A DNA stretch of 56,615 bases from a virus (IMGVR_UViG_3300036982_000611:1-56615); one strand, 5' to 3'. Positions 8,775 through 32,553 are shown, counted from the first letter of the stretch. Notes: generated from the letters alone by a model not told the origin. Numbers and translations: made by a program.

Positions 8775-8958
8775 TCATTAAATTCATCGCATCGAAGTCA
8801 TCCAATTTCTCTGTGAGCGTCGGTTCTTTATTCATTTCAGATTGTCGACGCCTGATTTTTTTTCGTTCTTTTCCCATCCATGTATCTCCGGCAACGTGGA
8901 ATTCTGGATGATCCTTTAGCCACTGCTTATCATCATCGCTCAGTTTTTTCCTGCTCAT
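8761..8958 (-). CDS. hypothetical protein
   Basis: Coupled small ORF. Confidence 0.55.
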   Translation of the reverse strand: MSRKKLSDDDKQWLKDHPEFHVAGDTWMGKERKKIRRRQSEMNKEPTLTEKLDDFDAMNLMNEEE

Positions 8959-9158
8959 CACTGCACCCACATCACAAGTCGTTCGCCTTTGATCACGACC
9001 CACTTCGGCGTTGCCATCCCCGGATCAATCATTTTGCGAACGTGTTTCTTCGCTTCGGCCATTACTTCCGCACTGACATCAGACTCATCGAATGTATTCC
9101 GGTAGATCTGCAGCAGGGCGAGCAGAGCATTGTTCTCAAGCAGTTCGTTATCAGTCAT
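8958..9158 (-). CDS. hypothetical protein
   Basis: AAGGA RBS, coupled ORF. Confidence 0.55.
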   Translation of the reverse strand: MTDNELLENNALLALLQIYRNTFDESDVSAEVMAEAKKHVRKMIDPGMATPKWVVIKGERLVMWVQ

Positions 9159-9360
9159 TATCCATTTCCTTTTGCGGTCGATGTTTGGGTTCACTGGTGA
9201 GATGCCATCCGTTGCAGAGTTTGCAGAAGAAGGCACGTTTTGGAGTTTTGCTTCTGCGGGATCGGTCTCTGATCCGTCGCATTTCTGCGACGGCTTCAGA
9301 TTGTTTGCCCCATCGCCGTTTGCCGGTGAAGAAGCATTTCGACGCATCACGGAGCGTCAT
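9151..9360 (-). CDS. small Zn-finger-like phage protein
   Basis: RAFFCKLCNGWHLTS motif common in phage hypothetical proteins. Confidence 0.65.
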   Translation of the reverse strand: MTLRDASKCFFTGKRRWGKQSEAVAEMRRIRDRSRRSKTPKRAFFCKLCNGWHLTSEPKHRPQKEMDND

Positions 9361-10049
9361 TAGTCCCACTCCGGCACTTCGAATTCCCGTTCAGTGACGA
9401 TGGTCCAGCCAGCGTCGAGTTTGTCCTGAATCATCGAAGGCTTGCTGTACCACCCTGCTCGGGGGGAATTCGGATGCTTCAGCAGCGTGTACTTGGCCTT
9501 CGGCACAACCGGATCGACGAAGTCAGAGGTTTGCCCGAGGTAGACGAACCAGATCGAACTTCCTTTGTATCCCGTATGACTAATCGTGTTGGCGAAAATC
9601 TCCTGCGGTTCAATCGCCGGATCCTTGTACGAGATCAGGAAGTGTCCGGTCTGCGCCGGAGTCCCGAATGTCCATGCACGAGTTTTCGGCGTTTCTTCCA
9701 GTTCGTCCTGGGAGACCATCCCACTGCAGACGCCCCTCACTCTTCCGCAGTATGGGCATTTCCCTTCGTGCCACCCTTTGAACGTCGTGAGCGTGCAGTA
9801 GGAGCATGGCAGAGGTTTCTTATCGGAACTTCCGACGCCCAGAGGAAGATCTTTGCGTTTGCAGCGGACTTCGAGTCGTGCGCCGTGACAGTCGATGTAC
9901 CCGTAAGAAATGTCGTCGCGCATCTTCGGCTCGACCAGCGTCATCCCCCACGACGAAACTGTTCCGTTTCTCATAATCCACCGATATTCATCAATGGCGA
10001 CACGTCGCGGCACAACATCCTGCGTGACCCAATCATTTTCGTTCATCAT
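9360..10049 (-). CDS. hypothetical protein with Zn ribbon (CSYC...CPYC)
   Basis: 229-aa coupled ORF. Confidence 0.65.
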   Translation of the reverse strand: MMNENDWVTQDVVPRRVAIDEYRWIMRNGTVSSWGMTLVEPKMRDDISYGYIDCHGARLEVRCKRKDLPLGVGSSDKKPLPCSYCTLTTFKGWHEGKCPYCGRVRGVCSGMVSQDELEETPKTRAWTFGTPAQTGHFLISYKDPAIEPQEIFANTISHTGYKGSSIWFVYLGQTSDFVDPVVPKAKYTLLKHPNSPRAGWYSKPSMIQDKLDAGWTIVTEREFEVPEWD

Positions 10050-10254
10050 TACGTCGTTTCCTTTCGTTCATCATTGCATCAGCCATATCAAAGCATCTCT
10101 GAGCGTCTCTTTCGAAAGTCGCCTCAGAGTCAATCCAGTTGAACGAGGCGAGCGCCTGCCCAGCGAACCAGTCGAGCAAACTCATACCGCGCAGGTCATC
10201 GATCGTATTGCCGACCTGCACGGGAAACGCCGATTCATCGTGTTCATTCAGCAT
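10033..10254 (-). CDS. conserved phage hypothetical protein (GMSLLDWFAGQAL family)
   Basis: AFP...GMSLxDWFAGQAL...ADAM motif. Confidence 0.75.
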   Translation of the reverse strand: MLNEHDESAFPVQVGNTIDDLRGMSLLDWFAGQALASFNWIDSEATFERDAQRCFDMADAMMNERKRRNDERK

Positions 10255-10459
10255 CTGTATTCTCCTCAATCCAGCAGTCAATTTCTTTCTTCAGGTTCTC
10301 CACCGTGGAGTCGTTGAGTACCGGCCCAGAACCGACCCATCCGTCCTCTGGTCCTTCGTAGGAGGCGTCGTAGCCTACCTGTGTTGCCTGAAAACGCTGG
10401 AAGTCGAAGTAGTACACGTCCGACTCCCGGATCTCCCAGCCCCTGTATTCCTCAAGCAT
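10244..10459 (-). CDS. hypothetical protein
   Basis: AAGGAGG RBS. Confidence 0.65.
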   Translation of the reverse strand: MLEEYRGWEIRESDVYYFDFQRFQATQVGYDASYEGPEDGWVGSGPVLNDSTVENLKKEIDCWIEENTDAE

Positions 10460-10682
10460 CGATAACCTCCTTTTGCAGCAGTCGAACCAAATCCATCACA
10501 TCGCCCCGTCTGTTCAGGTACAACCTTGTTTTCCGACCGATCAGGCAGACGACACGTCGTTCGGAGTCTTTGCCAACAATTTCGATCTTCACATCCGGCG
10601 AAGACGGCCAGTGAAACATCAGGTTACTGGGTTCAGCGGAGAAGCCCATTTCCGAGAGGAATTCCCATGTGATTGTGTTCAA
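10452..10682 (-). CDS. hypothetical protein
   Basis: GGAGG RBS, coupled ORF. Confidence 0.55.
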   Translation of the reverse strand: MNTITWEFLSEMGFSAEPSNLMFHWPSSPDVKIEIVGKDSERRVVCLIGRKTRLYLNRRGDVMDLVRLLQKEVIDA

Positions 10683-11098
10683 TTAACACCTCCATTGATG
10701 ATTGAGTTTTCGACTTCCGCCAGTTCAGCGTACTTCCGCCAGTATTCACTGAATGCGTTGCGGATCTTCTGTCGGTTGACGGAATCAGCATGTCGGTAGG
10801 CGATAGCCAAATGCTTAGTGAAACCGCCGCCAAACAGTTCCATCTTCGCCAGGACAAGGTACTCGTAATCATCCGGAACATCCGGCAGCGGAGCGACCTC
10901 GACGAATTCAGCGAGAAGATCGTCCGGATGTTCGCTGTTATGGAACACTCCGCCTTTAACCGACCATGACTCGTCACCGGCGTAGAACCGCATGCTGCTG
11001 AATGACTCAGCTTCGACATCCTCTTCAATCGGCGGCGTAATCCACCCAGCCCGAGTCACATAACGCTTGCCAGCTTCAAGTTTCAGTCCCATCATCAA
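10679..11098 (-). CDS. hypothetical protein
   Basis: LEAGKRYVTRAG N-terminus and GGGF...AYRHAD..N.QKI..AF C-terminus, both recurrent phage motifs. Confidence 0.7.
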   Translation of the reverse strand: MMMGLKLEAGKRYVTRAGWITPPIEEDVEAESFSSMRFYAGDESWSVKGGVFHNSEHPDDLLAEFVEVAPLPDVPDDYEYLVLAKMELFGGGFTKHLAIAYRHADSVNRQKIRNAFSEYWRKYAELAEVENSIINGGVN

Positions 11099-11203
11099 TC
11101 TCCTTCAAAGTTCAAAAACACATGACGCACGCACATCATCGTCATTCCCAACACTATGTCAAGAACAACAGTAGTAAAATTATTCTGGAAAAGTTGTTTT
11201 TGG

Positions 11204-11446
11204 TTAGTCGGCGGATCTGTCGCGGCTTTTTGCCCGTTTTTTCGATGCGTACAGCAGGTACATATTCCAGTCCATCGCGGCTCGGCTGGCATCGAGTTTG
11301 GTTGTGAACTCGTCCTTCAGGTCCGGGAACACTTTGCCTTCCTCGGGCGAGACAGAATAAAGCCTTGGTCCAAGGACGTATCCGCGTTCTGTGGTGAGCC
11401 GGAACAAACCGGCCTGTTCAGTGACAATTATTCTGGTGTTGGACAT
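11204..11446 (-). CDS. hypothetical protein
   Basis: GAGGAG RBS. Confidence 0.6.
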   Translation of the reverse strand: MSNTRIIVTEQAGLFRLTTERGYVLGPRLYSVSPEEGKVFPDLKDEFTTKLDASRAAMDWNMYLLYASKKRAKSRDRSAD

Positions 11447-11736
11447 GGCTCCTCTTTCTTCGCGTTCGCCGCACCTCGCATAATTGCCCAGTGCTTATTC
11501 AGTTTCATGCAACCACAACTTTTCGTCCGTCCGATACGGAGCATCTGGACAGTCACGGATTTCTCCGGAGATCCGCAACTGCACTGCACATCAATCACAT
11601 AATGCGATGCGTTGGGCGACTTGGACGGATACCGCACCCTGTACGGCGCGGAGACGGTCGTCAGCAGGCCGAACACCTGGCCGACAACAACATCACTCGA
11701 CCTGCTCAATGATGGATTCCCTGAGTCTCGTGGCAT
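11428..11736 (-). CDS. truncated homing-endonuclease N-terminal Cys module
   Basis: GQVFGLLT...QCSCG...LRIGRTKSCGC with no nuclease domain following. Confidence 0.6.
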   Translation of the reverse strand: MPRDSGNPSLSRSSDVVVGQVFGLLTTVSAPYRVRYPSKSPNASHYVIDVQCSCGSPEKSVTVQMLRIGRTKSCGCMKLNKHWAIMRGAANAKKEEPCPTPE

Positions 11737-11929
11737 TCTCTGCTCCTCCGTCCTGATCTCTGTAAAGGTAAAATGTCCCCGCCCAGCGAGCGATTTTTGC
11801 TCGGCGGATGTAGAAGTAGTCATCCTTCTCGCCATGAATACCGAGGTGGCTTTCGGAGTTCTCTCGGATCCACTGAGAATGCAGTTCTGTGGCGAATTCT
11901 TCGGCTGTTTGTACTGGCTGCGCATCCAT
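11693..11929 (-). CDS. hypothetical protein
   Basis: AAGGGAG RBS. Confidence 0.55.
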   Translation of the reverse strand: MDAQPVQTAEEFATELHSQWIRENSESHLGIHGEKDDYFYIRRAKIARWAGTFYLYRDQDGGAENATRLRESIIEQVE

Positions 11930-11943
11930 CGCGACGAACTCCC

Positions 11944-12156
11944 TTAATTGCTCTCAGGGTGCATTGCTCGCCGGATGATGGGATCGATTCGCTCCAGATG
12001 CTTCTTCATGTCCACGAAAGCCTCCGTCAGAATCTGAAAGACCTTGGCCTTTTCGTCCTCCAGCAGGAATTCCGCCGCCTCTGTTTCGACGATCGATACC
12101 GCCATGTGAATCAGTTCAAACGCCTCACCAAAATTGCACTTAATTTTCTCGGTCAT
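11944..12156 (-). CDS. hypothetical protein
   Basis: Coupled helical ORF. Confidence 0.55.
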   Translation of the reverse strand: MTEKIKCNFGEAFELIHMAVSIVETEAAEFLLEDEKAKVFQILTEAFVDMKKHLERIDPIIRRAMHPESN

Positions 12157-13013: not shown

Positions 13014-14759
13014 CTATTTATCTACCATTTTCCCATACCATCGTCCTTCCAGTGGGCCGGACCTGATATGTTTCTTCTGGTATCGCAGTTTTTCCATGCA
13101 TTCGGTCAGCATTCGGCTCGGTATCCCGGAACCAAAAGATCCCCGGTATCGCTTCATGAGTTCATCGAACTTGATGAGTTTCCAGACTCGCTCTTCATGA
13201 ACATACAGGCCACTCGACGGATCCTCGGGGGCTTTGAAGCTGGCGAGATCTCCCATCGGGGTGAGTTTCAGGCGGCTTGTCCAGGTATGCATCCCGTGAC
13301 CGCGTTCCACCGCTTCGTCCAGCTTGTCCATGACCGGACTCACTGCTCCGACCATGCTGGCAATCAGTGACTCGGTCTGTTCTGCCAGACTGTTCTCGAG
13401 TTTCTCTTCGACCTTGGCTGAGTTTGCAAGATATTCCCGGAGCCCTCGAGTGATCCCGTTCTCCCGCTTCTTGTCGTTTGCGCGTCCTTTCCAGATCGAC
13501 TCCCAGTCCCAGATCGGGAATGTCCGCGACAACTGCCACTGCCCGTTCGTTTCTGTCTGGATCTTGCGAGCCACTGCCATCGGCGACTCGAACTCCAACT
13601 GCTTCATCAGAATCTCTTTGTCGATGTCCGGGAGCTTCAGCGAGACCAGTTCTTCGTCGGCCTTCGTGACGAACTTCATCGACCAGTTACTCTGCCACTC
13701 GTCGATCCGGTCGATACTCTTGGCTCCAGACTCCGCACGGGGATCAGCGACCATCCGGATTCCGTGTCGATGCAGCCACCCGCCCAGCGAGAGATCAGAA
13801 CCCTCCGCAGGCTGAGGATCAGTCAGGTCCGTGTTCGCCTCGATCTCCTTCTGGAACTCGCCCAGCATGAATCGCTGAGAACTCTGGAAGATAGTGTGCA
13901 GTTCGGCCTCGGTCTTCGGCGGATCGCAGACCAACAGGTTCGCCCCGGCGAGCCACATCCAGACCTGATCAATCGCGTCCTGCTCTTCGAGACCGTTGAT
14001 CCCGTACTTCAATAATGCATCCCGCCAGCAACTGTTCGCATACTTCAGAAGGCTGTGGTGACGGGCGCCAGGGCCGATCTTTCCCATTGGCGACCGGAAC
14101 TTCGTCGCGTCGGTCGTGGACGCTCCACGAGGAGCCACGGAGCCCTGACGAGCGTACTCCTCGCACAGGTAATCGACGACATGCTGCGGCAACTTCCCGA
14201 TCGGGATCTCTGCAGGTGATTTACCCTCAATCCACTGGTAAGTTTTCCCGCTCGGGTGTATCGATGGTGGAGCGACCGACTGCGTCTCTTTGCCTTTGCC
14301 TCCGAAGCGAAACTCCAGACCGCTGATCGTCATGTTGGCGACCGGCGGCAGACCAGAACACCAGCGATAAATTCTGTGCAGGCTTTTCCCGGAGGTGTAA
14401 GTCGGCGCTGGGTAATCCACCAGAAGAGCATCTGCCATCGCTCGACCTTCGAGCGTGTCGTCTTCGATGTCGATAATGGCTTGTTCTTCCGGGATGCCAT
14501 GACACAGGCCCAGAATGATCCCGCAGTTCCACGGTTTCTCGCCCCACTGTTCGTTGATGACTTCCGGATCCTGCGTGGCTGATTTCCCCCATTGGTTGCC
14601 AACGGGATGCTTCCCCTGGGCTTTACAATCCTCGCGACCGCACGAACAAAGAACCCGATCCTGCTCGAAAACAGGGTAGTGCAAACGCACTGGATACAGC
14701 CCAAAATCAACCAATTGCAACACATCAGTGGACAAAACACTCACGGAGAATCTCCTCAT
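13014..14759 (-). CDS. bifunctional DNA primase/polymerase (Prim-Pol) with PriCT-like region
   Basis: CSCG..DC...GKHP, NCGIILG, IDIED, LHRIYRW, VAPPSIHPSGKTYQW, GARHHSL; likely start is GTG at 14744 after GAGGAG. Confidence 0.9.
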   Translation of the reverse strand: MRRFSVSVLSTDVLQLVDFGLYPVRLHYPVFEQDRVLCSCGREDCKAQGKHPVGNQWGKSATQDPEVINEQWGEKPWNCGIILGLCHGIPEEQAIIDIEDDTLEGRAMADALLVDYPAPTYTSGKSLHRIYRWCSGLPPVANMTISGLEFRFGGKGKETQSVAPPSIHPSGKTYQWIEGKSPAEIPIGKLPQHVVDYLCEEYARQGSVAPRGASTTDATKFRSPMGKIGPGARHHSLLKYANSCWRDALLKYGINGLEEQDAIDQVWMWLAGANLLVCDPPKTEAELHTIFQSSQRFMLGEFQKEIEANTDLTDPQPAEGSDLSLGGWLHRHGIRMVADPRAESGAKSIDRIDEWQSNWSMKFVTKADEELVSLKLPDIDKEILMKQLEFESPMAVARKIQTETNGQWQLSRTFPIWDWESIWKGRANDKKRENGITRGLREYLANSAKVEEKLENSLAEQTESLIASMVGAVSPVMDKLDEAVERGHGMHTWTSRLKLTPMGDLASFKAPEDPSSGLYVHEERVWKLIKFDELMKRYRGSFGSGIPSRMLTECMEKLRYQKKHIRSGPLEGRWYGKMVDK

Positions 14760-14778
14760 TCAAAGTTCTTGGCATGGT

Positions 14779-14807
14779 AGCCTATCCATCGGAATAAAAT
14801 CAGTAAA
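14779..14807 (-). promoter_or_regulatory. leftward sigma70-type promoter TTTACT-17bp-TAGGCT
   Basis: In the divergent intergenic region upstream of Prim-Pol. Confidence 0.55.
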
Positions 14808-14838
14808 GTCTTGTCCTAGAATTTTTCGATAATTATTC

Positions 14839-14866
14839 TTGACAGTTGACTTGACTTCATTAGGAT
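14839..14866 (+). promoter_or_regulatory. rightward sigma70-type promoter TTGACA-16bp-TAGGAT
   Basis: Consensus -35; upstream of the csrA operon. Confidence 0.6.
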
Positions 14867-14977
14867 GCCTCGCATGTGGATTATTGCTGTTGCGTTGTTG
14901 GTTGGATTCATTGAGTTTTTGAACGTACTTGCGTTCGGGGTGGATCCGGATTCATTTTTTGGTTGAAAGGGATTTCA

Positions 14978-15157
14978 ATGCTTTGCCTTGCTCGGAAGAA
15001 AAACCAGAAGATTCTGATTGGCGACAACATCGTCATTACGATTGTCGAAGTAAGTCCCGGAAAGGTCGTCATCGGGATTGATGCGCCAGCAGACATTGCT
15101 GTGCATCGGCAGGAAGTGTGGGACGCGATAGAAAAGGAGAGTTCGAATGGCAAGTGA
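14978..15157 (+). CDS. csrA: carbon storage regulator CsrA/RsmA homologue
   Basis: MLCLARKKNQKILIGDNIVITIVEV...VVIGIDAPADIAVHRQEV matches the CsrA signature. Confidence 0.95.
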   Translation: MLCLARKKNQKILIGDNIVITIVEVSPGKVVIGIDAPADIAVHRQEVWDAIEKESSNGK

Positions 15158-15413
15158 AGTCTTTGCTGTACCGGAAGAACATGTCGATGACATCATCCGT
15201 ATGATGATACTGGGACTGAATGCGTGCGGTGGCGGCGTTAGCAACGAAGTGACTCTGAACGTCCGCCTGTGGGCAACCCAGCACAATCGTGACCTTGTGA
15301 GCATACTTGATGCAATGGTCGTTCGGTCAAAAAAGAGGGCTGCGAAGAGCAAGAAGGACCGGATCATTGAGCAGTCGAGAAAGAGAGGTGGGTATGCCAC
15401 GAAAAGCACGTAA
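15147..15413 (+). CDS. hypothetical protein
   Basis: AAGGAG RBS, coupled to csrA. Confidence 0.65.
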   Translation: MASEVFAVPEEHVDDIIRMMILGLNACGGGVSNEVTLNVRLWATQHNRDLVSILDAMVVRSKKRAAKSKKDRIIEQSRKRGGYATKST

Positions 15414-15981
15414 ACCGCCCTCTGGCAGAGAGTCAGCCGAGGTAATTGAGGAGGCCCGTCGCCTTTTCTTTTATCATTCCGAGACTGGAGTGATTATTCG
15501 CAGATGTTACTGGCAGGGAATGAATGTCGGCGAGGATGCCTGTAGCTATAGGCGAGGGCGTACTGGAGTTAAATACAAATACGTATGCATGTTCGATGGA
15601 AAGTACGCGGCGCACAGAGTTGCATGGATGCTGCACTATGGGTCATGGCCTTCTACACTTTTAGATCATCGCGATGGAGACGGATGCAATAATAAAATTG
15701 AAAATTTACGTGAGGCAACGAAGGCACAGAATGGATCAAACGCATCAATCAATAAAAGGAACACATCGGGAGTGACGGGTGTGTTCTGGGAGAAGGCCAC
15801 TAAGAAGTGGCGAGCGGCCATAAAAGTGAACTACAAATGCATAAAGCTCGGACGATTCGTTTTATTTTCCGATGCTGTTAATGCCAGAAAAGAAGCAGAG
15901 ATAAAATATGGATTTAGCGAACGCCACGGAGCAAGCAAAACAGACTTGGAATCACCAACCACGGGCGATAGACTTCCTTGA
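15394..15981 (+). CDS. HNH-AP2 endonuclease
   Basis: YHSETG, AHRVAWMLHYGSWP, LDHRDGDGCNNKIENLR, NTSGVTGV. Confidence 0.92.
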   Translation: MPRKARKPPSGRESAEVIEEARRLFFYHSETGVIIRRCYWQGMNVGEDACSYRRGRTGVKYKYVCMFDGKYAAHRVAWMLHYGSWPSTLLDHRDGDGCNNKIENLREATKAQNGSNASINKRNTSGVTGVFWEKATKKWRAAIKVNYKCIKLGRFVLFSDAVNARKEAEIKYGFSERHGASKTDLESPTTGDRLP

Positions 15982-17341
15982 CCGTACTAGGTATAGCCTG
16001 CTTGATTGCATAATGGGTGGCGGGAAGAGTTACATGGCTGTTTCCCACATGCGCAAAGTCTCCACCACCGGCAGCAAGCGCACAATCATCCTCTGCCCGT
16101 CAGCGGTCCTCGGGGTTTGGAGACGTGAGTTCTTTAAGCATGCTCCCGAAGAGTTTGACGTGATCGTCCTGGATAAAGGTTCGTCGAAGGACAAGGCACT
16201 GCTTGTTGCTACGTCCATTAACTTGCAGAGATCGCACCAAAGGCCGATAGTGTTCGTCGTGACGTATGAATCCTTTTGGCGACCGGAACTCTTGAAAGTG
16301 TTCTCGTCGTTCACATGGGAGAAGATTGTTGCCGACGAGTCGCATCGACTGATGTCGGCTTCAGCGTCCTGCAGTAAGCATGCATGGAAGCTCGGTTCTC
16401 GCGCTGGGTCGAAGACGGGGCTCACCGGAACTCCGATGCCAAACAATCCCGGCAACATCTTCGGCCAGGCACGTTTTCTGAACGATCAGATCTTCGGTAA
16501 ATACTGGACTGCGTTCAAAAAAGAGTACGCCATCATGAACCAGTACATCCCGCAGAAGGTGGATCAATGGGTCAATTTGGAACGGATGAACGCGAAGATT
16601 TCCACGTTCCGGTATTATATTGGCCCAGAAGTTCTCGTCCTGCCCGACAAGCAGGACATCGTGATCGAAGTTGGTCTCAGCGCAAAGGGTCGTAAACTTT
16701 ATGACCAGATGCGGAGGGAATCGATGGTCGAGATCAAGCGGGCCATCGAGAACGCATCCGGCGAAACCACTGAGGAAGTCCGAACAGCCGTCGGATCGAA
16801 CGGCGCTGTGCAGTTCCTGCGACTGCTCCAGCTTTCACAGGGGTTCATCAAGGACACTGAAGGCGAAGAGCTCGACACTGACACAGAGAAACGCAAGGTG
16901 CTGCTGGATCTGCTCGAGGACATCGACGAGCCGGTCTGTGTTTACGGGTGGTTCAAGAATGATCTGGCGATCGTGAGGCGATGCTGCGAGATCCTCGGTC
17001 GACGATACGGCGAGATCTCAGGCGCACGGAAGGATTTGACGGATCACGCGACGTACCCTGACAACATCGACATTATGGGCGTGCAGTGCAAGTCCGGAAG
17101 TTCCGGAATCGACCTGACTCGGGCTCGCATTGGGATCACCCTGAACTCGGGCCTGATGTCTCCGGGAGATTACGATCAGATGATGGCTCGCCAGTATCGG
17201 CCTGGGCAAACGAGGGACGTGATTTATTACCACCTTGTGACGAAGAAGACCGTCGAAGAGAAGCTGATTAAGGCACGGCAGGAGAAGCGAGACATCGTGG
17301 ATGCCCTGCTGATGGATCTGTTTGATGAGGATGTGTTCTGA
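15908..17341 (+). CDS. SNF2-family (SF2) helicase
   Basis: MGGGKS, IILCP, VADESH, LTGTP, SGIDLT, QMMARQYRPGQ. Confidence 0.92.
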   Translation: MDLANATEQAKQTWNHQPRAIDFLDRTRYSLLDCIMGGGKSYMAVSHMRKVSTTGSKRTIILCPSAVLGVWRREFFKHAPEEFDVIVLDKGSSKDKALLVATSINLQRSHQRPIVFVVTYESFWRPELLKVFSSFTWEKIVADESHRLMSASASCSKHAWKLGSRAGSKTGLTGTPMPNNPGNIFGQARFLNDQIFGKYWTAFKKEYAIMNQYIPQKVDQWVNLERMNAKISTFRYYIGPEVLVLPDKQDIVIEVGLSAKGRKLYDQMRRESMVEIKRAIENASGETTEEVRTAVGSNGAVQFLRLLQLSQGFIKDTEGEELDTDTEKRKVLLDLLEDIDEPVCVYGWFKNDLAIVRRCCEILGRRYGEISGARKDLTDHATYPDNIDIMGVQCKSGSSGIDLTRARIGITLNSGLMSPGDYDQMMARQYRPGQTRDVIYYHLVTKKTVEEKLIKARQEKRDIVDALLMDLFDEDVF

Positions 17342-17419
17342 CTAGAGGAATTCCGTTCCGCTGCTCGTTGCAGAGGATCGGTTAAACAATCCGGTAGGCG
17401 CAAAAACAAAGGAGAAACG

Positions 17420-17641
17420 ATGCAATTGAAAGCTGATGATGTGCGGGCAATGCTCGCTACGAAAGAGCCAGTCGATGCTGTGTTTTTGGTTCCGCTGAGC
17501 GGTGATGATGTTGGTGCGATGATGATCAAGTCGCTGGATGCTGGAGAATCACCTATGGTCATCGCGAAAGAGTACAGCGGGAATGAGCGATGCCTGTCAT
17601 GGAAGACGGTTTGTGAGCAGTATGAAATTGTCAAGGGCTGA
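17420..17641 (+). CDS. hypothetical protein (cassette 1)
   Basis: AAGGAG RBS; flanked by palindromic sites. Confidence 0.7.
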   Translation: MQLKADDVRAMLATKEPVDAVFLVPLSGDDVGAMMIKSLDAGESPMVIAKEYSGNERCLSWKTVCEQYEIVKG

Positions 17642-17739
17642 GAGTAACCGCGGATGTGGGGTTCCGCTGCTCACGGGGAGTTTGCGGAAAACATCGGTGT
17701 TTGTTTGAAAAAGTGGTATCGCTGTTGTTTGAGGTTTTC

Positions 17740-17985
17740 ATGACAAAGCACACTCCGGGACCGTGGTTTCTTGGCGTAGACCTCAGTCTGAATTACTGGC
17801 CGACGCATGGCGGATGGGCTCCTTTACCGCCGACAATTGAAAACAAAAAGCTGCAAGCGTTGGCTCCTGACTTACTCAGGTTACTGAAGGAATCGGTCAG
17901 CACTTTGGCGGCATCTCGTCGGCCGATCGAAGACTGGCTTAACGAATCGCGGACGCTGATTCAGAAGATTGAATCTGAAAAGTAA
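17740..17985 (+). CDS. hypothetical protein, KHTPGPW family (cassette 2)
   Basis: MTKHTPGPW...N.KL.ALAPDLL..L recurrent phage motif. Confidence 0.75.
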   Translation: MTKHTPGPWFLGVDLSLNYWPTHGGWAPLPPTIENKKLQALAPDLLRLLKESVSTLAASRRPIEDWLNESRTLIQKIESEK

Positions 17986-18029
17986 ACGCGGTTAAACAAT
18001 CCGCTAGTCGCAAAAACAAAGGGATTCAA

Positions 18030-18221
18030 ATGGCTGAGAAGAAGTGTGAAAATCGCGCAACACTGCGACGAATCTGGCCTGACTCACCACCAGATTTCGT
18101 GTGTTCGGATCATGCCAGGGGGTGGCTGAACATTGCGAAAGCAATGGGGGTGAATATGTTTTTGGAACCGATCTTTGAAACCGATCGAAAGTGCTGCAAT
18201 ATGGTTCAATCGGCGGAATGA
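18030..18221 (+). CDS. small Cys-rich hypothetical protein (cassette 3)
   Basis: ORF ends inside a palindromic site. Confidence 0.6.
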   Translation: MAEKKCENRATLRRIWPDSPPDFVCSDHARGWLNIAKAMGVNMFLEPIFETDRKCCNMVQSAE

Positions 18222-18259
18222 CAGAGGTTGTGGGTTCCGCTAGTCGCTGGGGAGGAACG

Positions 18260-18478
18260 ATGGTCGAAGAGAAATTCGTAGTGATGCTTCGCATGGATGC
18301 GGAGCGTCAGGTTTGGCTGGGATACAACACATTCGGGAATCTCGGAACAACAGACTTCGGGTATGCGTTTCGGTACGACACAAAAACACAAGCGGTGAAC
18401 GCACTGAAGAAAGCCAGGCGGCTGAAATCATGGCCGGACGCTGTTGTCCGCAGCACGCTTGATCAAGTCGCAAAGTGA
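18260..18478 (+). CDS. hypothetical protein (cassette 4)
   Basis: GGAGGA RBS. Confidence 0.65.
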   Translation: MVEEKFVVMLRMDAERQVWLGYNTFGNLGTTDFGYAFRYDTKTQAVNALKKARRLKSWPDAVVRSTLDQVAK

Positions 18479-18505
18479 ACTAACAGCGGCATTTCATCCG
18501 CGTGC

Positions 18506-18890
18506 ATCGTGGCACTAACGAATTTGCCCCGAGGCTGAGCCGTAAAACGCTATGAAGCCGACACAGAATATCGGGTAGTTCGTGACAGCCGGAGAGACGG
18601 CATGAAAATACCCAAAGGCTCCGGGCAAGTCGAAAGATTGCCGCCCGGCGTGGATCTCGACCACGGAACGAAAGGCAGGCCGGTAGCCTTCGAGAACCGG
18701 CAAACGATCGGCAGGTTGGTGGTGAAACCCGATGGAGGCGAAAGCCTGTGAAGTTGGTCTGGAGTCTTGAAGGCCGGTTCGCACCCGGAGCACTCAGGCG
18801 TGTGATGACGACACGGACTGAGGAGGATATTACACGAAGCTACGTGCAGGACAGCCAGTTGCTGGGTTCAATTCCCGGCCCGATCTCTTG
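18506..18890 (+). ncRNA. putative structured non-coding RNA with tRNA-like 3' domain
   Basis: No credible ORF; consecutive hairpins with GAAA/GAGA loops; T-arm GCTGGG-TTCAATT-CCCGGC stacked on a GATCGG/CCGATC stem. Confidence 0.55.
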
Positions 18891-18969
18891 GTTAAAGTAA
18901 TTGCGGAGATGTGTTCCGCTGTTGAGGATCGGTTCTGCACTCCTCTGTCCCTGTGGAAATTATGGAAAC

Positions 18970-19239
18970 ATGACAAAGAAAACTATTCCGGAACCATCAG
19001 AAAAACACGATGTTCGCGTTATGGAACTGATAGTGATGCCGAAGGGACAGCCGACCTTCAGCGAAATGGCAACGCGAATTGCGATCGACGACGAGGCTGG
19101 CGGCGAGTACGTTAAACTGACGCAATACGGTGGTCACACTGATTTATCGAAGTTCATCGCCATTGATCCGGATGAGTGGCCCAAACTCCGAGAGTGCATT
19201 GATTACATGATCAGCGAGTGTAGGACCGAACAAGAGTAA
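18970..19239 (+). CDS. conserved phage hypothetical protein
   Basis: V.PKGQPTFSEMATRIAIDDEAGGEYV...IDPDEWP motif. Confidence 0.75.
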   Translation: MTKKTIPEPSEKHDVRVMELIVMPKGQPTFSEMATRIAIDDEAGGEYVKLTQYGGHTDLSKFIAIDPDEWPKLRECIDYMISECRTEQE

Positions 19240-19257
19240 CAGCGGGGCACACTACCG

Positions 19258-19539
19258 ATGGCTAAACACGAGTGGATGACGGACGGAATAAGTCTCGATG
19301 CGTCCGAAAAGATTCTTGCGGAATACGAGTCGAAAGGCTGGGAAGTCGTCAGCATCTCATGGGATTCCGATACCGGAGTATTTATGGGAGTTTGGAAGCG
19401 GCCAGTCGTTCACAGTGAGTCCGTGTATGATGTCGTGAGCCGGTTGCGGTCGTGGATCAGAGACTACGGAGACCAGAAGCAACCGTATTTTATCGCAGAT
19501 TTGAAAACCGTTTTGGATGCGATTTCAACAGCGGAGTGA
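19258..19539 (+). CDS. hypothetical protein
   Basis: GWEVVS...WKRP motif, flanked by palindromic sites. Confidence 0.65.
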   Translation: MAKHEWMTDGISLDASEKILAEYESKGWEVVSISWDSDTGVFMGVWKRPVVHSESVYDVVSRLRSWIRDYGDQKQPYFIADLKTVLDAISTAE

Positions 19540-19558
19540 CTGTCCACAGTTGAGGTGA

Positions 19559-19765
19559 ATGATGGCCAACGAGTTACAAGCATATCAGCCAGTGAGAGTG
19601 GATGCTGTGCAGTGTTATTCGTACCGATGGACCTGTCCGGCGTGCGGCGTGATCAATGCGATGCGGGATCACACTGATCCAGATTGTTATTGCCGCACCT
19701 GCAAGATGCAGGTGCGGGTAAAAAAAATCGAATACGAGAACGGCGCAGTCACTAATTTCGCGTGA
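19559..19765 (+). CDS. Zn-ribbon hypothetical protein
   Basis: WTCPACG...CRTC; GAGGTG RBS. Confidence 0.65.
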   Translation: MMANELQAYQPVRVDAVQCYSYRWTCPACGVINAMRDHTDPDCYCRTCKMQVRVKKIEYENGAVTNFA

Positions 19766-19834
19766 CAGTAGCAGAGATTTGAAATGGACGCGATTGAAAT
19801 ATAACCTACAGTTTTTCTTGACTTCGTTTTAGAA

Positions 19835-20281
19835 ATGGAATACCGTATGCCGAGTATTGGTGAGTTGGCCCGAAGGTTCGAAGTGCTGCTGGATCGAAAG
19901 AACAAGGCGGCTGCAGACACAAGAGAAGTTTCCGGAGAGATCGAAAGTCTCGAGCAGGAACTTCTGGATAAGATGGCAGACGAGGGATTCCCCAGCATGA
20001 GGCTGGAATCCGGGAAGACTCTCTACACGAGGGTCGACAAGTTTTATGCGATCAAGTATCCCGATGGAGCGACCGAAGAACAGAAGGCCGAGACGAAGCA
20101 GGAATTCATTCGGGCACTGGCTGATTGTCCTGATACGTCTGACATCGTGAAACGCGACTACAATGCGGCAACGCTGCGGTCGCGGATCAAAGAAATCGAA
20201 GAGAACGGCGAACAGCTTGACCCTTCAGTTCTGAACCTGATCTCGGTGATTGAGAAGCCGAGAATCTCTTATAGATCGTGA
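19835..20281 (+). CDS. conserved phage replication-region hypothetical protein (coiled-coil N-terminus)
   Basis: 148-aa ORF; TTGACT-17bp-TACCGT promoter-like element at 19818-19846. Confidence 0.75.
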   Translation: MEYRMPSIGELARRFEVLLDRKNKAAADTREVSGEIESLEQELLDKMADEGFPSMRLESGKTLYTRVDKFYAIKYPDGATEEQKAETKQEFIRALADCPDTSDIVKRDYNAATLRSRIKEIEENGEQLDPSVLNLISVIEKPRISYRS

Positions 20282-20523
20282 GTTTGAAAATGAAGATTAC
20301 CAAAGGACTGACTCCTCCGGATCCCGCGAAAGTTGGTCGTCCGCGCGAGTACAACTTCCAGCAGATGGAAGTTGACGACGCCGCAGATATCAATGCGTCG
20401 TACCAGACTGTCTATGCCTGCATTCGCCAGTTCAAGAAGAACGACGAGTACAAAGACTGGTCGTTCCGCATTGAGAAGATTGGTAAGTCCGAAAAGAAAG
20501 TCAGGGTCTGGAGAACAGCCTGA
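20278..20523 (+). CDS. small putative DNA-binding protein
   Basis: GRPREYNFQQMEVDD...FRIEK...VRVWRT recurrent phage motif. Confidence 0.7.
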   Translation: MSLKMKITKGLTPPDPAKVGRPREYNFQQMEVDDAADINASYQTVYACIRQFKKNDEYKDWSFRIEKIGKSEKKVRVWRTA

Positions 20524-20815
20524 CGTGCCTTCCAAAGAAACACGTCGTTAAAACTACAGGACGCTGAAGGCAATTTCAGAATGCAGGAGAGTACCCTGCC
20601 GTGTTTCTGCGGGATTTTAATCTTCTTCCTCTGGGTCAATTGGCAAGCATGGAGCACAGCAAAAGAAGGAATAACTCAGTTCTACCCAGCATGCTGAGTT
20701 CTGAGGCGATCATCGGTTGAGTGGCTGAGAACACCAGGCCAAACAGATCGCGTTTCGGATGTGCGGTTTCGTCCCGTCAAGCGGCGTTACTCCTATTCTC
20801 GAAGGTGTTAAATAT

Positions 20816-20918
20816 CGCGAGGTACGCCAGTTGGAAGAGCGGCCTGCATCTCAAATATCCGGTGCGTCCGGATCTTCGAGAGGCAGGTGTGTCTCAGGTT
20901 CGATTCCTGGCCTCGCCA
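20816..20918 (+). tRNA. tRNA-like gene with extended/interrupted anticodon arm (CTC, Glu-like)
   Basis: Acceptor GCGAGG/CCTCGC, U8A9, D-arm with GG, anticodon stem CCTGC/GCAGG enclosing 35 nt, T-arm TCAGG-TTCGATT-CCTGG. Confidence 0.55.
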
Positions 20919-20968
20919 ATCGTCGTCATTCGACGACGTACTCAATGTTTCCTTTTGAAAGGTGTTCA

Positions 20969-21799
20969 ATGTCCACAGCACTCGTGCAGTATCAGAAGTC
21001 CGATTTCTCAGTTCTTGCCGATGGCAGCGAATTGGCAGCAGCAATGCTGGAAAACGGCGATGGAGGGGGATTTCTTGAGTCCGACTTCCCCCGAGTCAAA
21101 ACTCCGTCCGGTGGTGGAATGTTCTGGACCATCAACGGCGCGAACGGAATGGAATCCACAGCAGCGATCGAAGGCGTGATTGTGTTCCGATGCCAGAAAG
21201 GAATCCTCTGGAAGGCCGATGAAACGTCCGACGACAAGCCTGTGCTTGTCTCTGACGACATGAAGTACGCTCGGCTGAACATTCCATGGGCAGAAGTTCC
21301 TGCGGATATGCAGCAGGTTCTCCCGCATCACGAAGTACCGACAGAAGTTCTCCGGGAAGCCGGAGCCCTGCGTGAAGATGCTGACGGGAATCCCGTCCGC
21401 TACTTCTACTGGGATGGCCCGAACAAACTGCCTTACTGCGAGTTCGGAAGCTCGACAAAGGCTGGATCGAAGGGCAAGAAGGCGAAGGACTATCAGATCC
21501 TGTATGTTCTGCGAAAGGCCGAGGCTCTCCCACTGCGGATCCAGCTTGGCCCAACGTCGATTATGCCGATCCGGAAGTTCTTCCGACAACTCAACGTCCC
21601 TCACACAATGGCGTATGTGTCGCTGGGACTGAAGGTTGAGAAGTCATCATCAGGTAAGGATTACTCAGTCGTTGTTCCGCAACGAACGGGTACTCTGGAT
21701 CCTGCGACAGCCTTGGTGATCAAGGAGAGGTACAAGGAAGAACTCGAGCGGATGCATGATGCAGGACGACTCAACATCGTCGATTCTGCTGCAGAGTAA
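20969..21799 (+). CDS. putative ssDNA-binding/annealing protein
   Basis: FPRVKTPSGGG, IEGVIV, PLRIQLGPTS motifs; replication-module context; GAAAGG RBS before ATG 20969. Confidence 0.55.
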   Translation: MSTALVQYQKSDFSVLADGSELAAAMLENGDGGGFLESDFPRVKTPSGGGMFWTINGANGMESTAAIEGVIVFRCQKGILWKADETSDDKPVLVSDDMKYARLNIPWAEVPADMQQVLPHHEVPTEVLREAGALREDADGNPVRYFYWDGPNKLPYCEFGSSTKAGSKGKKAKDYQILYVLRKAEALPLRIQLGPTSIMPIRKFFRQLNVPHTMAYVSLGLKVEKSSSGKDYSVVVPQRTGTLDPATALVIKERYKEELERMHDAGRLNIVDSAAE

Positions 21800-21811
21800 T
21801 ACTGAACGGAG

Positions 21812-21843
21812 TCCGGCGGAGCCAAGGATGGCTCCGTTTTTTT
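21812..21843 (+). terminator. Rho-independent terminator at the convergence of the two arms
   Basis: GCGGAGCCA-AGGA-TGGCTCCGT followed by a T-run. Confidence 0.85.
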
Positions 21844-22213
21844 ATGCGCTGACACCACCGACCAGAATCCGGCAGTCCAGGTAATCCTCATCGCCGTTGC
21901 TGATGTCGTACCCGACCGTCACAATTGACTCGTCGTCCGATGAGGCTCCGCCCGAGATCGTCATCTGAATCGCTCTGCCAGCGATCAGTGTGAGCCCGCT
22001 GCATCCTGAATCTGATTCGACAACTGTGTCAACATCGATGGTCGCTACGTCAGTAATGGTCAGTGTCGCATCTACAGGATCTGCCGTTGGATTCGAGACA
22101 GTCACCAGAGGAGGCAGTCGCTTATCTAGGTCGACGTAAACTGTGATCGTCGCGCGACTGTGTTTGCACAGGACATTGCTGGACTCGTAGCAATCCGGAT
22201 AATCAGACATCAC
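21842..22213 (-). CDS. hypothetical virion-associated protein
   Basis: Beta-rich acidic ORF at the end of the late operon. Confidence 0.65.
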   Translation of the reverse strand: MMSDYPDCYESSNVLCKHSRATITVYVDLDKRLPPLVTVSNPTADPVDATLTITDVATIDVDTVVESDSGCSGLTLIAGRAIQMTISGGASSDDESIVTVGYDISNGDEDYLDCRILVGGVSA

Positions 22214-22476
22214 GTTCTCTCCCTGAATCGCCAGACACGAGGATTACGGGACGCCGCGAACACTCGAGACACAGATTCTGCACTAAAGACTCGCTCTCGT
22301 CCAGACACCGTCCAGCCTACCGTCGGGACTGGAAGATCTCCCTGCTCGACGAAATAACTGAACGCGCCGTGCCACCGGGATAATTCATCGTCGGTGTTGT
22401 TCGGAAATGGGATCGTAACGAATCCCGGCATCGCAACCCCAGCGGCAGCGCTGCGTTTTGCTGCCGTCGTCGTCAT
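22210..22476 (-). CDS. hypothetical protein
   Basis: Coupled ORF. Confidence 0.6.
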   Translation of the reverse strand: MTTTAAKRSAAAGVAMPGFVTIPFPNNTDDELSRWHGAFSYFVEQGDLPVPTVGWTVSGRERVFSAESVSRVFAASRNPRVWRFRERT

Positions 22477-23864
22477 GCGTCCTCACCCTTCGTGAACGTC
22501 GTGCCGTTATCGGAAGTCCCGGAAGTCCCGGCCACTGTCGTTGTGTCGTCGCGATATAGAGTTCTTGTCGTCGCTGTCTGAGTGACCTTGTTGCGAGCGT
22601 ACATGAACAGCCAAGTGAGTTTGTCCTTGAGGCTGGATGTTGCTGCTGGAGGAGCAGAGAGTTCAGCGAATGTGTCGACTGACAACACATCCAGAACCTG
22701 AGCGTTCACCTGAGCCGGAGTTGCCAGAGGTGAAGTTGCTGCAGTGATCGCAGCTTCGACGAGTGACTGGTCAGCGGGATCTGTCGGGAGGTTATCAGTC
22801 TTCGCTTTGATTGCAGCAATTTCTGTGTCGAGGAAGTCGTCGATCGTGTCCAGTTTTGTGTTGACCGTAGAGAACGAAGACGCGATGTCAGACGCATCTG
22901 CTGGGTCTGCAGGAAGATTGTCCGTCTTCGCCTTGATCGCAGAGGTCTTGACTGCTTCCGCCGCAACAGCCGCAGTTAGTGCTGGCATTTCCGTATCCAG
23001 CAAATCATCAATCGTGTCCACGCTTGTTTGAGTTGATCGACTACTCACAGTGGCATTAAGATTGGTCGCAACAGTCGTGTTGGTTGTTCCCAGATCCGTC
23101 GCGAGCGTATTGGTCCACTGTGTTGTGCTAAGTGCAGTAGCACTCGTCGCCAACCCTGCTTGTATCTGACTCACAGGATGAATGTGCAACGAAACAATCG
23201 CAAACGCCACGCCGTTCACTGGTGCCGATGTCAAAGCCTCCTCCAAAACAATCGTCTTGGTGGCACCAATGTAATCGTAAATCGCCCGAACCTGTCCGGC
23301 CAATGCCCCATCCGTGAACACGAGCATCGAATCGTTGTAGAAATTATCGACTGACGATGTGAGTCCAGTGACGAACGTGGTTGTGGTCGCAGACGCATCA
23401 ATGACAGTTGAGTCGATCTGCTGGAATGCCGTCGTCTGTCGCAGTCGCTTACCGGAGGACGTTGCGACGTTGTGCGTGGCTCCTGTCAATGGCTCGTCCC
23501 AGATCAGGTCAACCAGTGTGGCTTTGTCAGCGGAGTCCAGTACCACTGCTCCCGTTCGAATGGCTCGCACATTCCACGACATCGCATAAGTCGCGGAACT
23601 GGTCGTGGTCCCAGTGACAGTAGCAGACTCTTCGAGCGTGAAAGAATCGCCCTCGACCTCAGACGCTGGATTGTAGCTGCAATCGTAGATTCCAGTTGTT
23701 GCCGAACGCTTCGTGATCGTGACTGAGTCGGCTACTGACGCCCCGTTTTTGCGTACTGCAACAGTTGGATCGCTGTCCGCATCCTTGAGCACCATCGTGT
23801 CTGGATTGCGAGTCTGGATGACCCAGTACAACGTGCCACCGACCTGAAAAACTGCTGGTCTCAT
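22473..23864 (-). CDS. putative fibre/structural protein with internal repeats
   Basis: Ala/Thr-rich; repeated IKAKTDNLP.DPAD and TIDD.LDTE units. Confidence 0.65.
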   Translation of the reverse strand: MRPAVFQVGGTLYWVIQTRNPDTMVLKDADSDPTVAVRKNGASVADSVTITKRSATTGIYDCSYNPASEVEGDSFTLEESATVTGTTTSSATYAMSWNVRAIRTGAVVLDSADKATLVDLIWDEPLTGATHNVATSSGKRLRQTTAFQQIDSTVIDASATTTTFVTGLTSSVDNFYNDSMLVFTDGALAGQVRAIYDYIGATKTIVLEEALTSAPVNGVAFAIVSLHIHPVSQIQAGLATSATALSTTQWTNTLATDLGTTNTTVATNLNATVSSRSTQTSVDTIDDLLDTEMPALTAAVAAEAVKTSAIKAKTDNLPADPADASDIASSFSTVNTKLDTIDDFLDTEIAAIKAKTDNLPTDPADQSLVEAAITAATSPLATPAQVNAQVLDVLSVDTFAELSAPPAATSSLKDKLTWLFMYARNKVTQTATTRTLYRDDTTTVAGTSGTSDNGTTFTKGEDA

Positions 23865-25526: not shown

Positions 25527-25549
25527 GACCTACCCCCACGAGGAGCGGA

Positions 25550-25867
25550 CTACTTAACCACTGTTGTCAACAACTTATCCACCGACATAATCACGCCCCG
25601 GCACAACTCAGATTCTGCAGGAGACTTCTCCTGCGCCATCGCCTTAATCTTGCTGTCCTTCTGCTGGATCTCTCGCATGCATTGCTCGTGAATAGTGAAT
25701 CCAATCGACCCTGAGTAGACAGTCATCGCAATAATCAGGATAGCCAGCATACGACAGTGAGACGCCATTCGCTCGAACTGACACGACACTCCATCGTGGT
25801 AGATCAGTTTGGTGCTTGCAACGGCAATGCTAACCATGAACCACAGAAAGCTCAGTTGTATTGCCAT
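25550..25867 (-). CDS. membrane protein
   Basis: Two hydrophobic segments plus a coiled tail. Confidence 0.55.
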   Translation of the reverse strand: MAIQLSFLWFMVSIAVASTKLIYHDGVSCQFERMASHCRMLAILIIAMTVYSGSIGFTIHEQCMREIQQKDSKIKAMAQEKSPAESELCRGVIMSVDKLLTTVVK

Positions 25868-32551: not shown

Positions 32552-32553
32552 AA

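Follow-up and report, generated by a model that had tools for sequence, protein, structure and literature searches.

Short dyad linkers with typed spacers in a fixed order delimit single-gene cassettes in a variable island of phage genomes

Introduction

How can the genes between two conserved neighbours differ completely from one phage to its closest relatives, and what marks the places at which they are joined? The question is raised by a locus in the virus record IMGVR_UViG_3300036982_000611, a complete genome of 56,615 bp with direct terminal repeats, the whole of which is referred to here as the window. Downstream of an SNF2-family helicase gene, the original prediction, made from the DNA alone, had recognized ten palindromic sites of ~27 bp at the boundaries of small genes, and had proposed that these sites delimit the units of an undescribed system of gene-cassette shuffling. 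Here we describe these sites, which we call linkers, as 29-bp dyad elements in double-stranded DNA whose spacers fall into types, and we find that the types follow one and the same order in arrays from several phage lineages. We then weigh what kind of process may have put different genes into the slots between them.

Results

Anatomy of the linkers

With a layout of 10-nt arm, gap and 10-nt arm, all ten of the predicted sites are present (S1 to S10; Table 1). Their consensus is TGAnCAGCGG-N9-CCGCTGnTCA and, when the two arms are aligned on the invariant CGG...CCG, both give the half-site T-G/A-A-n-C/T-A-G/T-C-G-G; because the arms share this one half-site, the element is a 29-bp dyad (28–30 bp among the window sites). 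The half-site consensus was seen in 23 sites and then in 67, around an inner spacer of 7 nt. In particular, eight of the ten window sites have CGG-N9-CCG, that is, a 7-nt spacer with one flanking base on each side, S3 having N10 and S6 having N8, so the eight 7-nt spacers that had been reported are borne out. Two flavours of arm, CAGCGG and CTATCGG, combine freely; a left CAGCGG with a right CCGATAG is common, and none of the 23 tabulated sites has the CTATCGG flavour on both arms together. The sharing of parts between sites was also found as described before, in that S2 and S8 have the same left arm (GAGGATCGG), S4 and S5 the same right flank, and S2 and S4 a common spacer and leader (17379–17412 and 17989–18022 are 94% alike over 34 nt), with S1/S2 and S7/S8 standing back to back.

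Typed spacers in a fixed order

Scans with exact patterns recovered arrays in many viral contigs without nucleotide similarity to the window, among them two nearly complete genomes (G001, 38.3 kb, array at 7474–11948; G002, 38.4 kb, array at 32439–36129). The gene upstream of the array in these other lineages is not SNF2 but encodes a DUF3987 primase-helicase or a DnaB helicase. A loose 14-base pattern gave at least 118 loci, mostly chance matches; arrays were present in only a few of them (L014, which is the contig of L001, and L023, L026, L072 and L118), and matches to a position weight matrix (PWM) in the remaining loci were at chance level.

We clustered the spacers of 156 sites from 23 non-redundant arrays at an edit distance of at most 1, having dropped loci from the same contigs as others used (L006, L014, L128, L138, L139 and L141), near-duplicates (L148, L166, L171, L144 and L004) and two loci with two sites each (L002 and L126). 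The spacers fell into 46 types, 24 of which occur in at least two arrays, and these shared types cover 134 of the 156 sites, or 107 of 129 when the two types used as search baits are left out. Read along the arrays, the types follow the order AGTGGAACAT > TAATTGCAT > AACTTGTAT > AATTCCGTT > ATGTCGATGT > TGTGTGGTGT > TATGTTGGT > TCTTGTAGT > ATCTGCACT > GGCACACTA > TTGAGCGTT > TATCGTGTT > TTCGTGGTT > TCTGGTACT > AGTGACGCTA > AATAACTGT > ATAACCATA > ... For types that occur once per array, 377 comparisons of type pairs between arrays were concordant and none was discordant; in 1000 trials with shuffled order, the concordant fraction had a mean of 0.50 and a maximum of 0.60. The once-per-array rule excluded L167, in which AATTCCGTT occurs twice, with one copy out of order, and L003, in which AACTTGTAT occurs twice. 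These typed spacers in a fixed order are the main new result of our analysis. Given the uniform concordance, exchange preserves position and linkers are not re-ordered, so that of the cassette shuffling originally proposed, replacement, loss and gain by slot stand, and re-ordering does not.

Within a type, the ~14 nt made up of GG, spacer and CCG are invariant, and the outer arm bases differ according to the gene or leader next to them. The genes themselves vary from array to array: the slot after TAATTGCAT has 11 different contents in 12 arrays, that after AATTCCGTT has 16 in 19, and that after AACTTGTAT has 8 in 9. Because types and their order are constant while the genes differ, the linkers look like fixed joints for swaps of single genes. 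Empty slots, in which two linkers are directly adjacent, make up 7 of 137 neighbouring pairs and are always in the canonical order. Cassettes that are at least 90% identical in protein almost always keep both flanking types; L072 and L145 have a methyltransferase (MTase) in common, with 100% identity, and the next linker is of type AATTCCGTT in one and of type AACTTGTAT in the other; such exceptions look like the loss of a neighbouring unit. In the window, three linkers (S1, S8 and S9) are of types common to other arrays and stand in the common order, and six types are so far unique to it. The type of S1 is present in 18 of the 23 arrays, and was one of the search baits; that of S8 is present in seven.

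No gene for replication or DNA binding is common to the window and G001. What they do have in common is the C-terminus of a tail-fibre-like protein (92% over 132 aa), a peptidase and three uncharacterized open reading frames (ORFs) among the genes of the − strand. The similarity of the tail-fibre-like C-termini suggests a shared receptor-binding module and a shared host, and at least one other lineage probably has the same host as the phage of the window.

Confinement to the array

To judge how far the motif is confined to the array, we used two matrices. With a PWM that included the sites themselves, there were 16 matches of at least 12 bits, ten of them in 17341–19527, and 20 shuffles gave 1–10 matches (mean 4.65). 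Since this test is partly circular, we rebuilt the PWM without any site of the window or of its close relatives, using 64 sites from other lineages. At 12 bits or more this independent matrix found 14 matches in the 56.6-kb window, nine of them in 17341–19238, and nine of the ten predicted sites pass; 50 first-order Markov simulations had a mean of 3.9 matches and a maximum of 9. At 14 bits or more there were nine matches, seven of them in the array, against 1.2 expected. The sites, which delimit modules of single genes as predicted, are thus nearly confined to the array region. An isolated eleventh linker, at the boundary of two small genes on the other strand (25539–25567), has a spacer type that recurs in L026 and is a convincing further linker outside the array.

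A candidate second conserved site (window 23526, L002 10448, L003 12463, spacer ..ACTGGACT..) lies in tail-fibre-like coding sequence and was excluded as a false positive. In the window, this is the tail-fibre-like gene at 22473–23864 (−), the coding sequence of which around 23526–23554 (peptide ..VLDSA..) mimics the linker motif.

Sites and gene boundaries

Each site had been said to lie at a gene boundary, often with the upstream stop codon in its left arm. An ORF end directly precedes eight of the ten window sites, the exceptions being S2 and S8, the second members of the back-to-back pairs. At S1, S4, S5, S7 and S9, 6 or 7 nt separate the end of the stop codon from the end of the CGG; in the case of S1, the TGA that closes the SNF2 gene forms the first three bases of the linker. 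We collected 217 sites from 29 loci, 138 of which are closely preceded by the end of an ORF of 35 aa or more. In 105 of these 138, the end of the CGG lies 7 nt (53 sites) or 6 nt (52 sites) beyond that of the stop codon. Because this distance is fixed, the TGA or TAA belongs to the left arm, where it is mirrored by the TCA of the right arm. The downstream start, which is often preceded by recurrent leaders such as GCGCAAAAACAAAGG, lies 0–90 nt from the site with no preferred distance. One ribosome-binding leader, (G)CGCAAAAACA(A/T)(A/T)GG(A/G)G, recurs with different linker types and genes (window 17400–17419 and 18009–18029; L003 7940–7962), which suggests either a further layer of reassortment or convergent selection.

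Variable content between conserved flanks

The nine close relatives of the window phage keep the flanks of the array, with 82–88% nucleotide identity on the SNF2 side and ~90% on the side of the DUF7307 gene, the range over both flanks being 82–92%. Between window positions 17341 and 19798, however, the content is completely different in each of them, and homology with L001–L004 and L125–L128 stops exactly at 17341 and resumes at 19798. The distance between the flanks and the number of sites vary accordingly, down to relatives that have linkers and no gene (Table 1). Invariant gene content from SNF2 to the next conserved gene had been named beforehand as what would speak against a cassette array; it differs in every relative. 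In the more distant relatives L130–L132 (SNF2 52–67% identical), the locus holds different genes and no motif, and in L129 the array is placed after another gene. The stretch at 19766–19797 of the window, between the last cassette and the conserved boundary, reads GTAGCAGAGA-TTTGAAATG-GACGCGATTG; relatives have an intact linker exactly there, and the stretch may be a decayed last linker.

Breakpoints between arrays gather at the linkers. Among the distinct ends of shared segments of at least 80 bp in the 23 arrays, 91 of 202 lie within 20 nt of a linker centre, compared with 8% at random. Contigs from four further sources, three DNA samples and an RNA library, were also aligned to window 16800–20300. 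In those samples the window cassettes occur singly, at 85–99% identity. A site contains, or lies no more than 5 nt from, 17 of the 24 loose ends listed and 16 of the 24 joint ends in the contigs of all four, and sites make up about a tenth of the stretch; two further joint ends lie at the right boundary (19794 and 19797). Many of these joints may reflect the alignment of repeated linkers, since the joint sides are short (20–30 nt), and they then mark where homology ends and not which gene follows. As for the crossover point, no rule emerged by which the spacer always goes with the upstream or always with the downstream gene; both occur. The breakpoints foretold at the sites are thus found for a large share of segment ends, with others lying outside, as do three genes of L001 that abut without a site. 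A joint in one sample (X3) at which 17766 goes back to 17379 was considered as a circle junction and set aside, as one of its sides is not at a linker. The RNA run (X21) has contigs from the region, which is not evidence of transcription.

The linkers are DNA elements

Among 67 unique sites, none of the 14 mirrored positions pairs more often than in column shuffles. Indeed, the three most variable, 5/25, 7/23 and 8/22, pair less often (22 compared with 27.3, 29 with 35.6, and 40 with 44.3). The folding energies of the ten window sites range from −4.6 to −13 kcal/mol, with z scores of −2.63 to +0.31, one of the ten falling below −2. No T-run follows the sites. In the window, Rfam gave no match at gathering score, with only two chance C/D-box matches, inside a gene, at E ≤ 5 on 17200–20000, and ARAGORN found nothing. 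Because the arms do not co-vary and the sites fold like shuffles, the palindrome is a DNA element and not an RNA hairpin, and the linkers are double-stranded-DNA elements. The alternative that had been raised, in which small hairpins in a polycistronic mRNA serve in processing, stabilizing or attenuating the message, did not survive: the sites are all transcribed in the sense direction between genes, and a stem of 3–5 bp (CGGA/TCCG) can form in them, but hybrid arms are common and no compensatory change accompanies them, so that we regard an RNA element as very improbable. A tRNA-like or tmRNA-like gene considered in 18480–18970 is better read as two small ORFs (the fold of 18508–18897 has a z score of −0.71).

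Across sites, a weak arm tends to accompany a strong arm, as independent protein contacts with the two half-sites would bring about. The dyad symmetry likewise points to recognition of the arms by a dimer, or by two monomers, of a predicted protein.

Cassettes and neighbouring genes

The + strand genes of the window span ~15.3–21.8 kb and comprise an HNH endonuclease, the SNF2-family helicase, nine small ORFs, the DUF7307 gene and a gene for 346 aa; nearly all other genes are on the − strand, including those for a Prim-Pol primase, a UvrD-like helicase and at least four further HNH_3 endonucleases. A blastn search with window 15900–21800 against 50,697 phage records gave no match. Most cassettes are without a known family. 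The window gene at 18260–18478 has a counterpart in the unrelated 38-kb phage G001 (L149), a cassette with 97% protein identity that stands there behind a different linker type. Because methyltransferases and a Tad4-like domain occupy slots (Table 1), together with another cassette for an S-adenosylmethionine (SAM)-methyltransferase-like protein, the island looks like an early counter-defence region, and probably is one.

Several observations concern the surroundings of the array. The genome has at least five HNH_3 (phrog_99) endonuclease genes, at 15307–15981 (+) and at 3090–3746, 4162–4614, 6846–7376 and 8199–8774 (all −). The first overlaps the start of the SNF2 gene, and its stretch is absent or replaced in relatives (window 15375–15925 corresponds to ~20 bp in L001); it looks like the insertion of a free-standing homing endonuclease. 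Within the array, a stretch with a small GCCG...CGGC hairpin, 25 nt long and just before the ATG at 18602 (18578–18602), recurs exactly in the distant relatives L130 (twice, once at 93%) and L131 (21 nt), and is overlapped by a σ70-like match (18582–18609); it is possibly a leader element under conservation. Two relatives have genes for tRNA-Tyr within their variable region (L003 8348–8417; L130 3136–3221). The one in L003, for which the odd anticodon ATA was called, occupies a slot, and a further tRNA-like T-arm is present at ~8500–8530 of L003. In the array-bearing 38-kb genome G002, L137 891–2867 encodes a phage protein of 658 aa with a C-terminal CsrA domain (3e-08).

Table 1 Linkers, cassettes and flanks in the window, array sizes in relatives, and cassettes with family matches; bit scores are those of the independent PWM unless stated otherwise
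Feature	Record	Position	Strand	Detail
SNF2-family helicase gene, conserved left flank	window	15908..17341	+	Pfam SNF2-rel_dom 3.6e-25
Linker S1, type AATTCCGTT	window	17339..17367	+	20.1 bits
Linker S2	window	17372..17400	+	12.7 bits; back to back with S1 (empty slot)
Cassette gene, 73 aa	window	17420..17641	+	no family match; occurs alone in contigs of other samples
Linker S3	window	17644..17673	+	20.2 bits; gap 10
Cassette gene, 81 aa	window	17740..17985	+	weak phrog_1273 match; stop codon inside S4 left arm
Linker S4	window	17982..18010	+	15.8 bits
Cassette gene, 63 aa	window	18030..18221	+	stop codon inside S5 left arm
Linker S5	window	18218..18246	+	16.4 bits
Cassette gene, 72 aa	window	18260..18478	+	family F5
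Linker S6	window	18480..18507	+	13.1 bits; gap 8
Two small overlapping ORFs (18602–18751, 18748–18900)	window	18602..18900	+	second ends at canonical stop position, S7 left arm
Linker S7	window	18897..18925	+	15.9 bits
Linker S8, type [A/T]TCTGCACT	window	18923..18951	+	15.0 bits; overlaps S7 by 3 nt (empty slot)
Cassette gene, 89 aa	window	18970..19239	+	stop codon inside S9 left arm
Linker S9, type GGCACACTA	window	19236..19264	+	18.6 bits; type present in 3 arrays
Cassette gene, 93 aa	window	19258..19539	+	stop codon inside S10 spacer
Linker S10, weak	window	19525..19553	+	right arm CCA, not CCG; 15.3 bits with self-including PWM, <12 bits with independent PWM
Cassette gene, 68 aa	window	19559..19765	+	zinc-ribbon-like; possible decayed linker next
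DUF7307 (Pam3 gp33-like) gene, conserved right flank	window	19835..20281	+	Pfam 8.8e-15
Isolated eleventh linker, type [A/T]TAAGTAGT	window	25539..25567	−	16.9 bits; boundary of two small genes
Array between flanks	window	17341–19798		2.46 kb; 10 sites
Array between flanks	L001			3.3 kb; 6 sites
Array between flanks	L003 (= L128)			2.45 kb; 6 sites
Array between flanks	L134			>5 kb; at least 11 sites
Array between flanks	L125			1.24 kb; 1 site
Array between flanks	L126			1.0 kb; 1 site
Array between flanks	L002, L004			62 bp, no gene; 2 back-to-back sites, at least 13 bits
Array between flanks	L127			62 bp, no gene; 1 site at 13 bits or more
Tad4-like Thoeris inhibitor domain (type I)	L164	11940–12677		2.5e-29
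DNA methyltransferase cassettes: one C5 (cytosine), two N6/N4	L072; L001; L149	2528–3376; 8928–10274; 4020–5363

Discussion

What process could keep the joints constant while the genes between them change? We propose that the linkers together would be the framework of an early island of accessory, counter-defence genes that follows a replication gene, and that its content changes one slot at a time, by replacement, loss or gain of what lies between two linkers. The joint would fall inside the ~14-nt core that is identical within a type, the left arm staying with the upstream gene and the right arm with the downstream leader. Exchange would be homology-dependent, between linkers of the same type in co-infecting phages, much as proposed for T4-type phages (see below), with deletions between neighbouring linkers in addition. 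The chances that homology-dependent exchange at ordered linkers explains the arrays seem to us about even. Deletions that joined unlike types, together with breakpoints that lie outside linkers, favour it. Several points weigh on the other side. The identical core spans only ~14–20 nt, short for RecA-type recombination; RecT and ERF were not found in five records, three of them at least 97% complete, other annealase families not having been searched; and pure homology leaves the palindromic arms unexplained. Spacers remain identical at nine of nine positions beside cassettes that have diverged to 44–71% protein identity (F27, F4 and F10). Furthermore, 105 of the 202 segment ends lie more than 30 nt from any recognized linker, three genes of L001 abut without one, and the sides of the contig joints are no longer than 20–30 nt. 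Diverged homologues (<80%) are often in other slots (F8 at 74%, F6 at 46%), so some movement between slots has occurred that exchange between like types does not explain. Finally, the order itself was read from array pairs that are not independent, as several share blocks, and two spacer types served as bait in finding most of the arrays.

Some of these same points, namely the core too short for efficient general recombination, the exact spacers beside diverged cassettes and the lack of RecT- or ERF-family single-strand annealing proteins in the five records, would be accounted for if a tyrosine-type recombinase, encoded by the host or of an unrecognized kind, bound the arms and exchanged strands across the 7-nt spacer, with the spacer types (~24 or more) serving as addresses. 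Partners would need matching spacers, and cassettes would pass only between cognate slots, as happens with heterospecific lox sites. The core sites of tyrosine recombinases consist of inverted arms around an overlap region of 6–8 bp, and inverted 10-nt arms around a non-palindromic, A/T-flanked 7-nt spacer have this core-type geometry. Degenerate arms with spacers that are exact within a type are the opposite of what an ordinary operator shows; weak arms tend to go with strong arms; joints fall between the arms; and the order of types is never broken. The searches for an enzyme, however, speak against such a recombinase. In agreement with the original prediction, the window encodes no recombinase of the tyrosine (PF00589) or serine (PF00239) families, the two for which it was checked with profile searches in which control genomes were positive. 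More broadly, PF00589 is missing from 15 of 16 array-bearing records, including four that are at least 97% complete (G000, G001, G002 and G015), and in the single record with a match (G007), the 3.5 kb examined around the integrase gene contain no linker; PF00239 is missing from all six records searched (the window and G001–G005). The lineages have no candidate binding protein in common, their flanking genes being different (SNF2, DUF3987 primase-helicase and DnaB). The deletion beside the MTase of L072 and L145 joined unlike types, which a spacer-matching recombinase should not do, and a search of bacterial genomes of 185,579 species with one type-specific pattern gave 15 matches and no array. 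Taken together, we consider a site-specific recombinase of this sort possible but on the unlikely side. Slightly more doubtful still is a fuller version, in which the linkers would be natural heterospecific sites whose arms are read by the recombinase and whose 7-nt spacer is the address of a slot, in a rack of about two dozen slots shared by the unrelated lytic phages of one host. To the same tentative degree, double site-specific crossovers might exchange counter-defence genes among those phages, which would be the equivalent in nature of recombinase-mediated cassette exchange (RMCE).

Could the linkers be regulatory only, that is, operators or roadblocks for a dimeric DNA-binding protein, with breakpoints gathering at them since nothing else is conserved? 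Dyad symmetry without base-pair covariation does point to a protein dimer, the sites adjoin ribosome-binding leaders, and repeated dyad sites of unknown function are described in Cluster O mycobacteriophages (PMC4351075). Yet an operator would keep its arms and let its spacer drift, and here the opposite is seen; no regulatory purpose is apparent for 20 or more distinct spacers, each exact and in a fixed order; and it is the upstream stop that positions the sites, not the downstream start. Nor do promoters coincide with them: in 14700–22500 there are four σ70-like matches, compared with 5.5 expected from shuffles, and none is at a linker, the nearest being the one in the leader at 18582–18609, with the qualification that the consensus used may not be that of the host. 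A purely regulatory role thus appears quite unlikely to us.

The arrays have partial parallels in known systems. Integron cassettes insert at attI and carry attC, an imperfect palindrome of 57–141 bp that is recognized as a folded single strand and has R''/R' cores (GTTRRRY). Like integrons, the arrays described here are made of single genes that mostly lack a promoter and all point the same way; after each comes an imperfect palindrome, which may include the stop codon, and empty positions exist. Unlike in integrons, no IntI or other tyrosine recombinase lies beside the array, the sites are 29 bp long without a GTTRRRY core, arm pairing is not conserved, and the order of the sites is fixed. 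The dif site is 28 bp long, with an 11-bp XerC arm, a 6-bp centre and an 11-bp XerD arm. In dif and pdif modules, too, short two-arm sites with a central region flank genes, and, were a host recombinase at work here, the enzyme would likewise be encoded by the host and absent from the element. The linkers differ in their 7-nt centre (eight of the ten window sites), in arms that appear unlike the dif consensus, in lacking a regular alternation of site orientation, in residing in genomes of lytic-type phages, and in having no chromosomal counterpart among the matches to the one pattern searched. The statement that the sites are neither attC nor dif therefore holds for the features compared. With a generic tyrosine-recombinase core site they share two inverted arms and a 7-nt inner spacer; at such a site a cognate recombinase binds, cleaves and exchanges strands, and the phage genomes yielded no candidate for one. 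The logic of engineered heterospecific lox/FRT exchange (RMCE) fits ordered sites that are typed by their spacers and exchange that preserves position, though that system is artificial and no recombinase was found here; we know of no natural phage counterpart.

Closest in behaviour are the promoter-early stem-loops (PeSLs) of T4-type phages, units of ~100 bp with a σ70 promoter and a stable terminator hairpin, both tested experimentally, that have been proposed as preferred crossover points (Arbiol et al. 2010, PMC2839356; Comeau et al. 2014, PMC4122927). According to those papers, PeSLs are repeated intergenic motifs in hyperplastic regions of small ORFan genes, they include the upstream stop codon and the downstream Shine-Dalgarno sequence, and insertions, deletions and replacements between relatives map to them, all as seen here. 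The linkers differ in being 29-bp units with no promoter match at the site and a hairpin that is neither stable nor conserved, and in their typed spacers, which keep a fixed order across unrelated phages; the PeSL text available describes no such typing or ordering. By analogy, then, the island may work like a PeSL-type hyperplastic region, even though it falls outside the definition of a PeSL for want of a promoter and a stable stem-loop. In Cluster O mycobacteriophages, the dyad repeats are 17 bp long, with invariant arms and a 3-bp centre, and are spread genome-wide, about one-third of them inside genes; the authors see few if any of them in indels (PMC4351075). With these repeats, and with the stoperators of Cluster A, the linkers share the presence of many short, largely intergenic dyad sites for which binding by a dimer is predicted; they differ in having degenerate arms and typed spacers, and in being gathered in one island where they coincide with indels (PMC4351075). 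A limited full-text search of the literature led to the PeSL and Cluster O papers and to no account of the motif, of typed spacers or of ordered linkers.

The accessory regions of phages gather counter-defence genes, and it is only partly understood how single genes can move between unrelated phages and leave the genomes intact. In the arrays described here the joints are explicit: they are 29-bp elements with a built-in stop codon, of a limited range of types, in a fixed order, in lineages whose gene content otherwise hardly overlaps. If confirmed, the linkers would provide a sequence signature with which counter-defence islands, and the single genes within them, could be found in metagenomes, and they would offer a test case for whether selection on gene mobility holds short DNA addresses constant. 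Were a recombinase indeed involved, the arrays would represent a new natural system of cassette exchange, and a potential tool.

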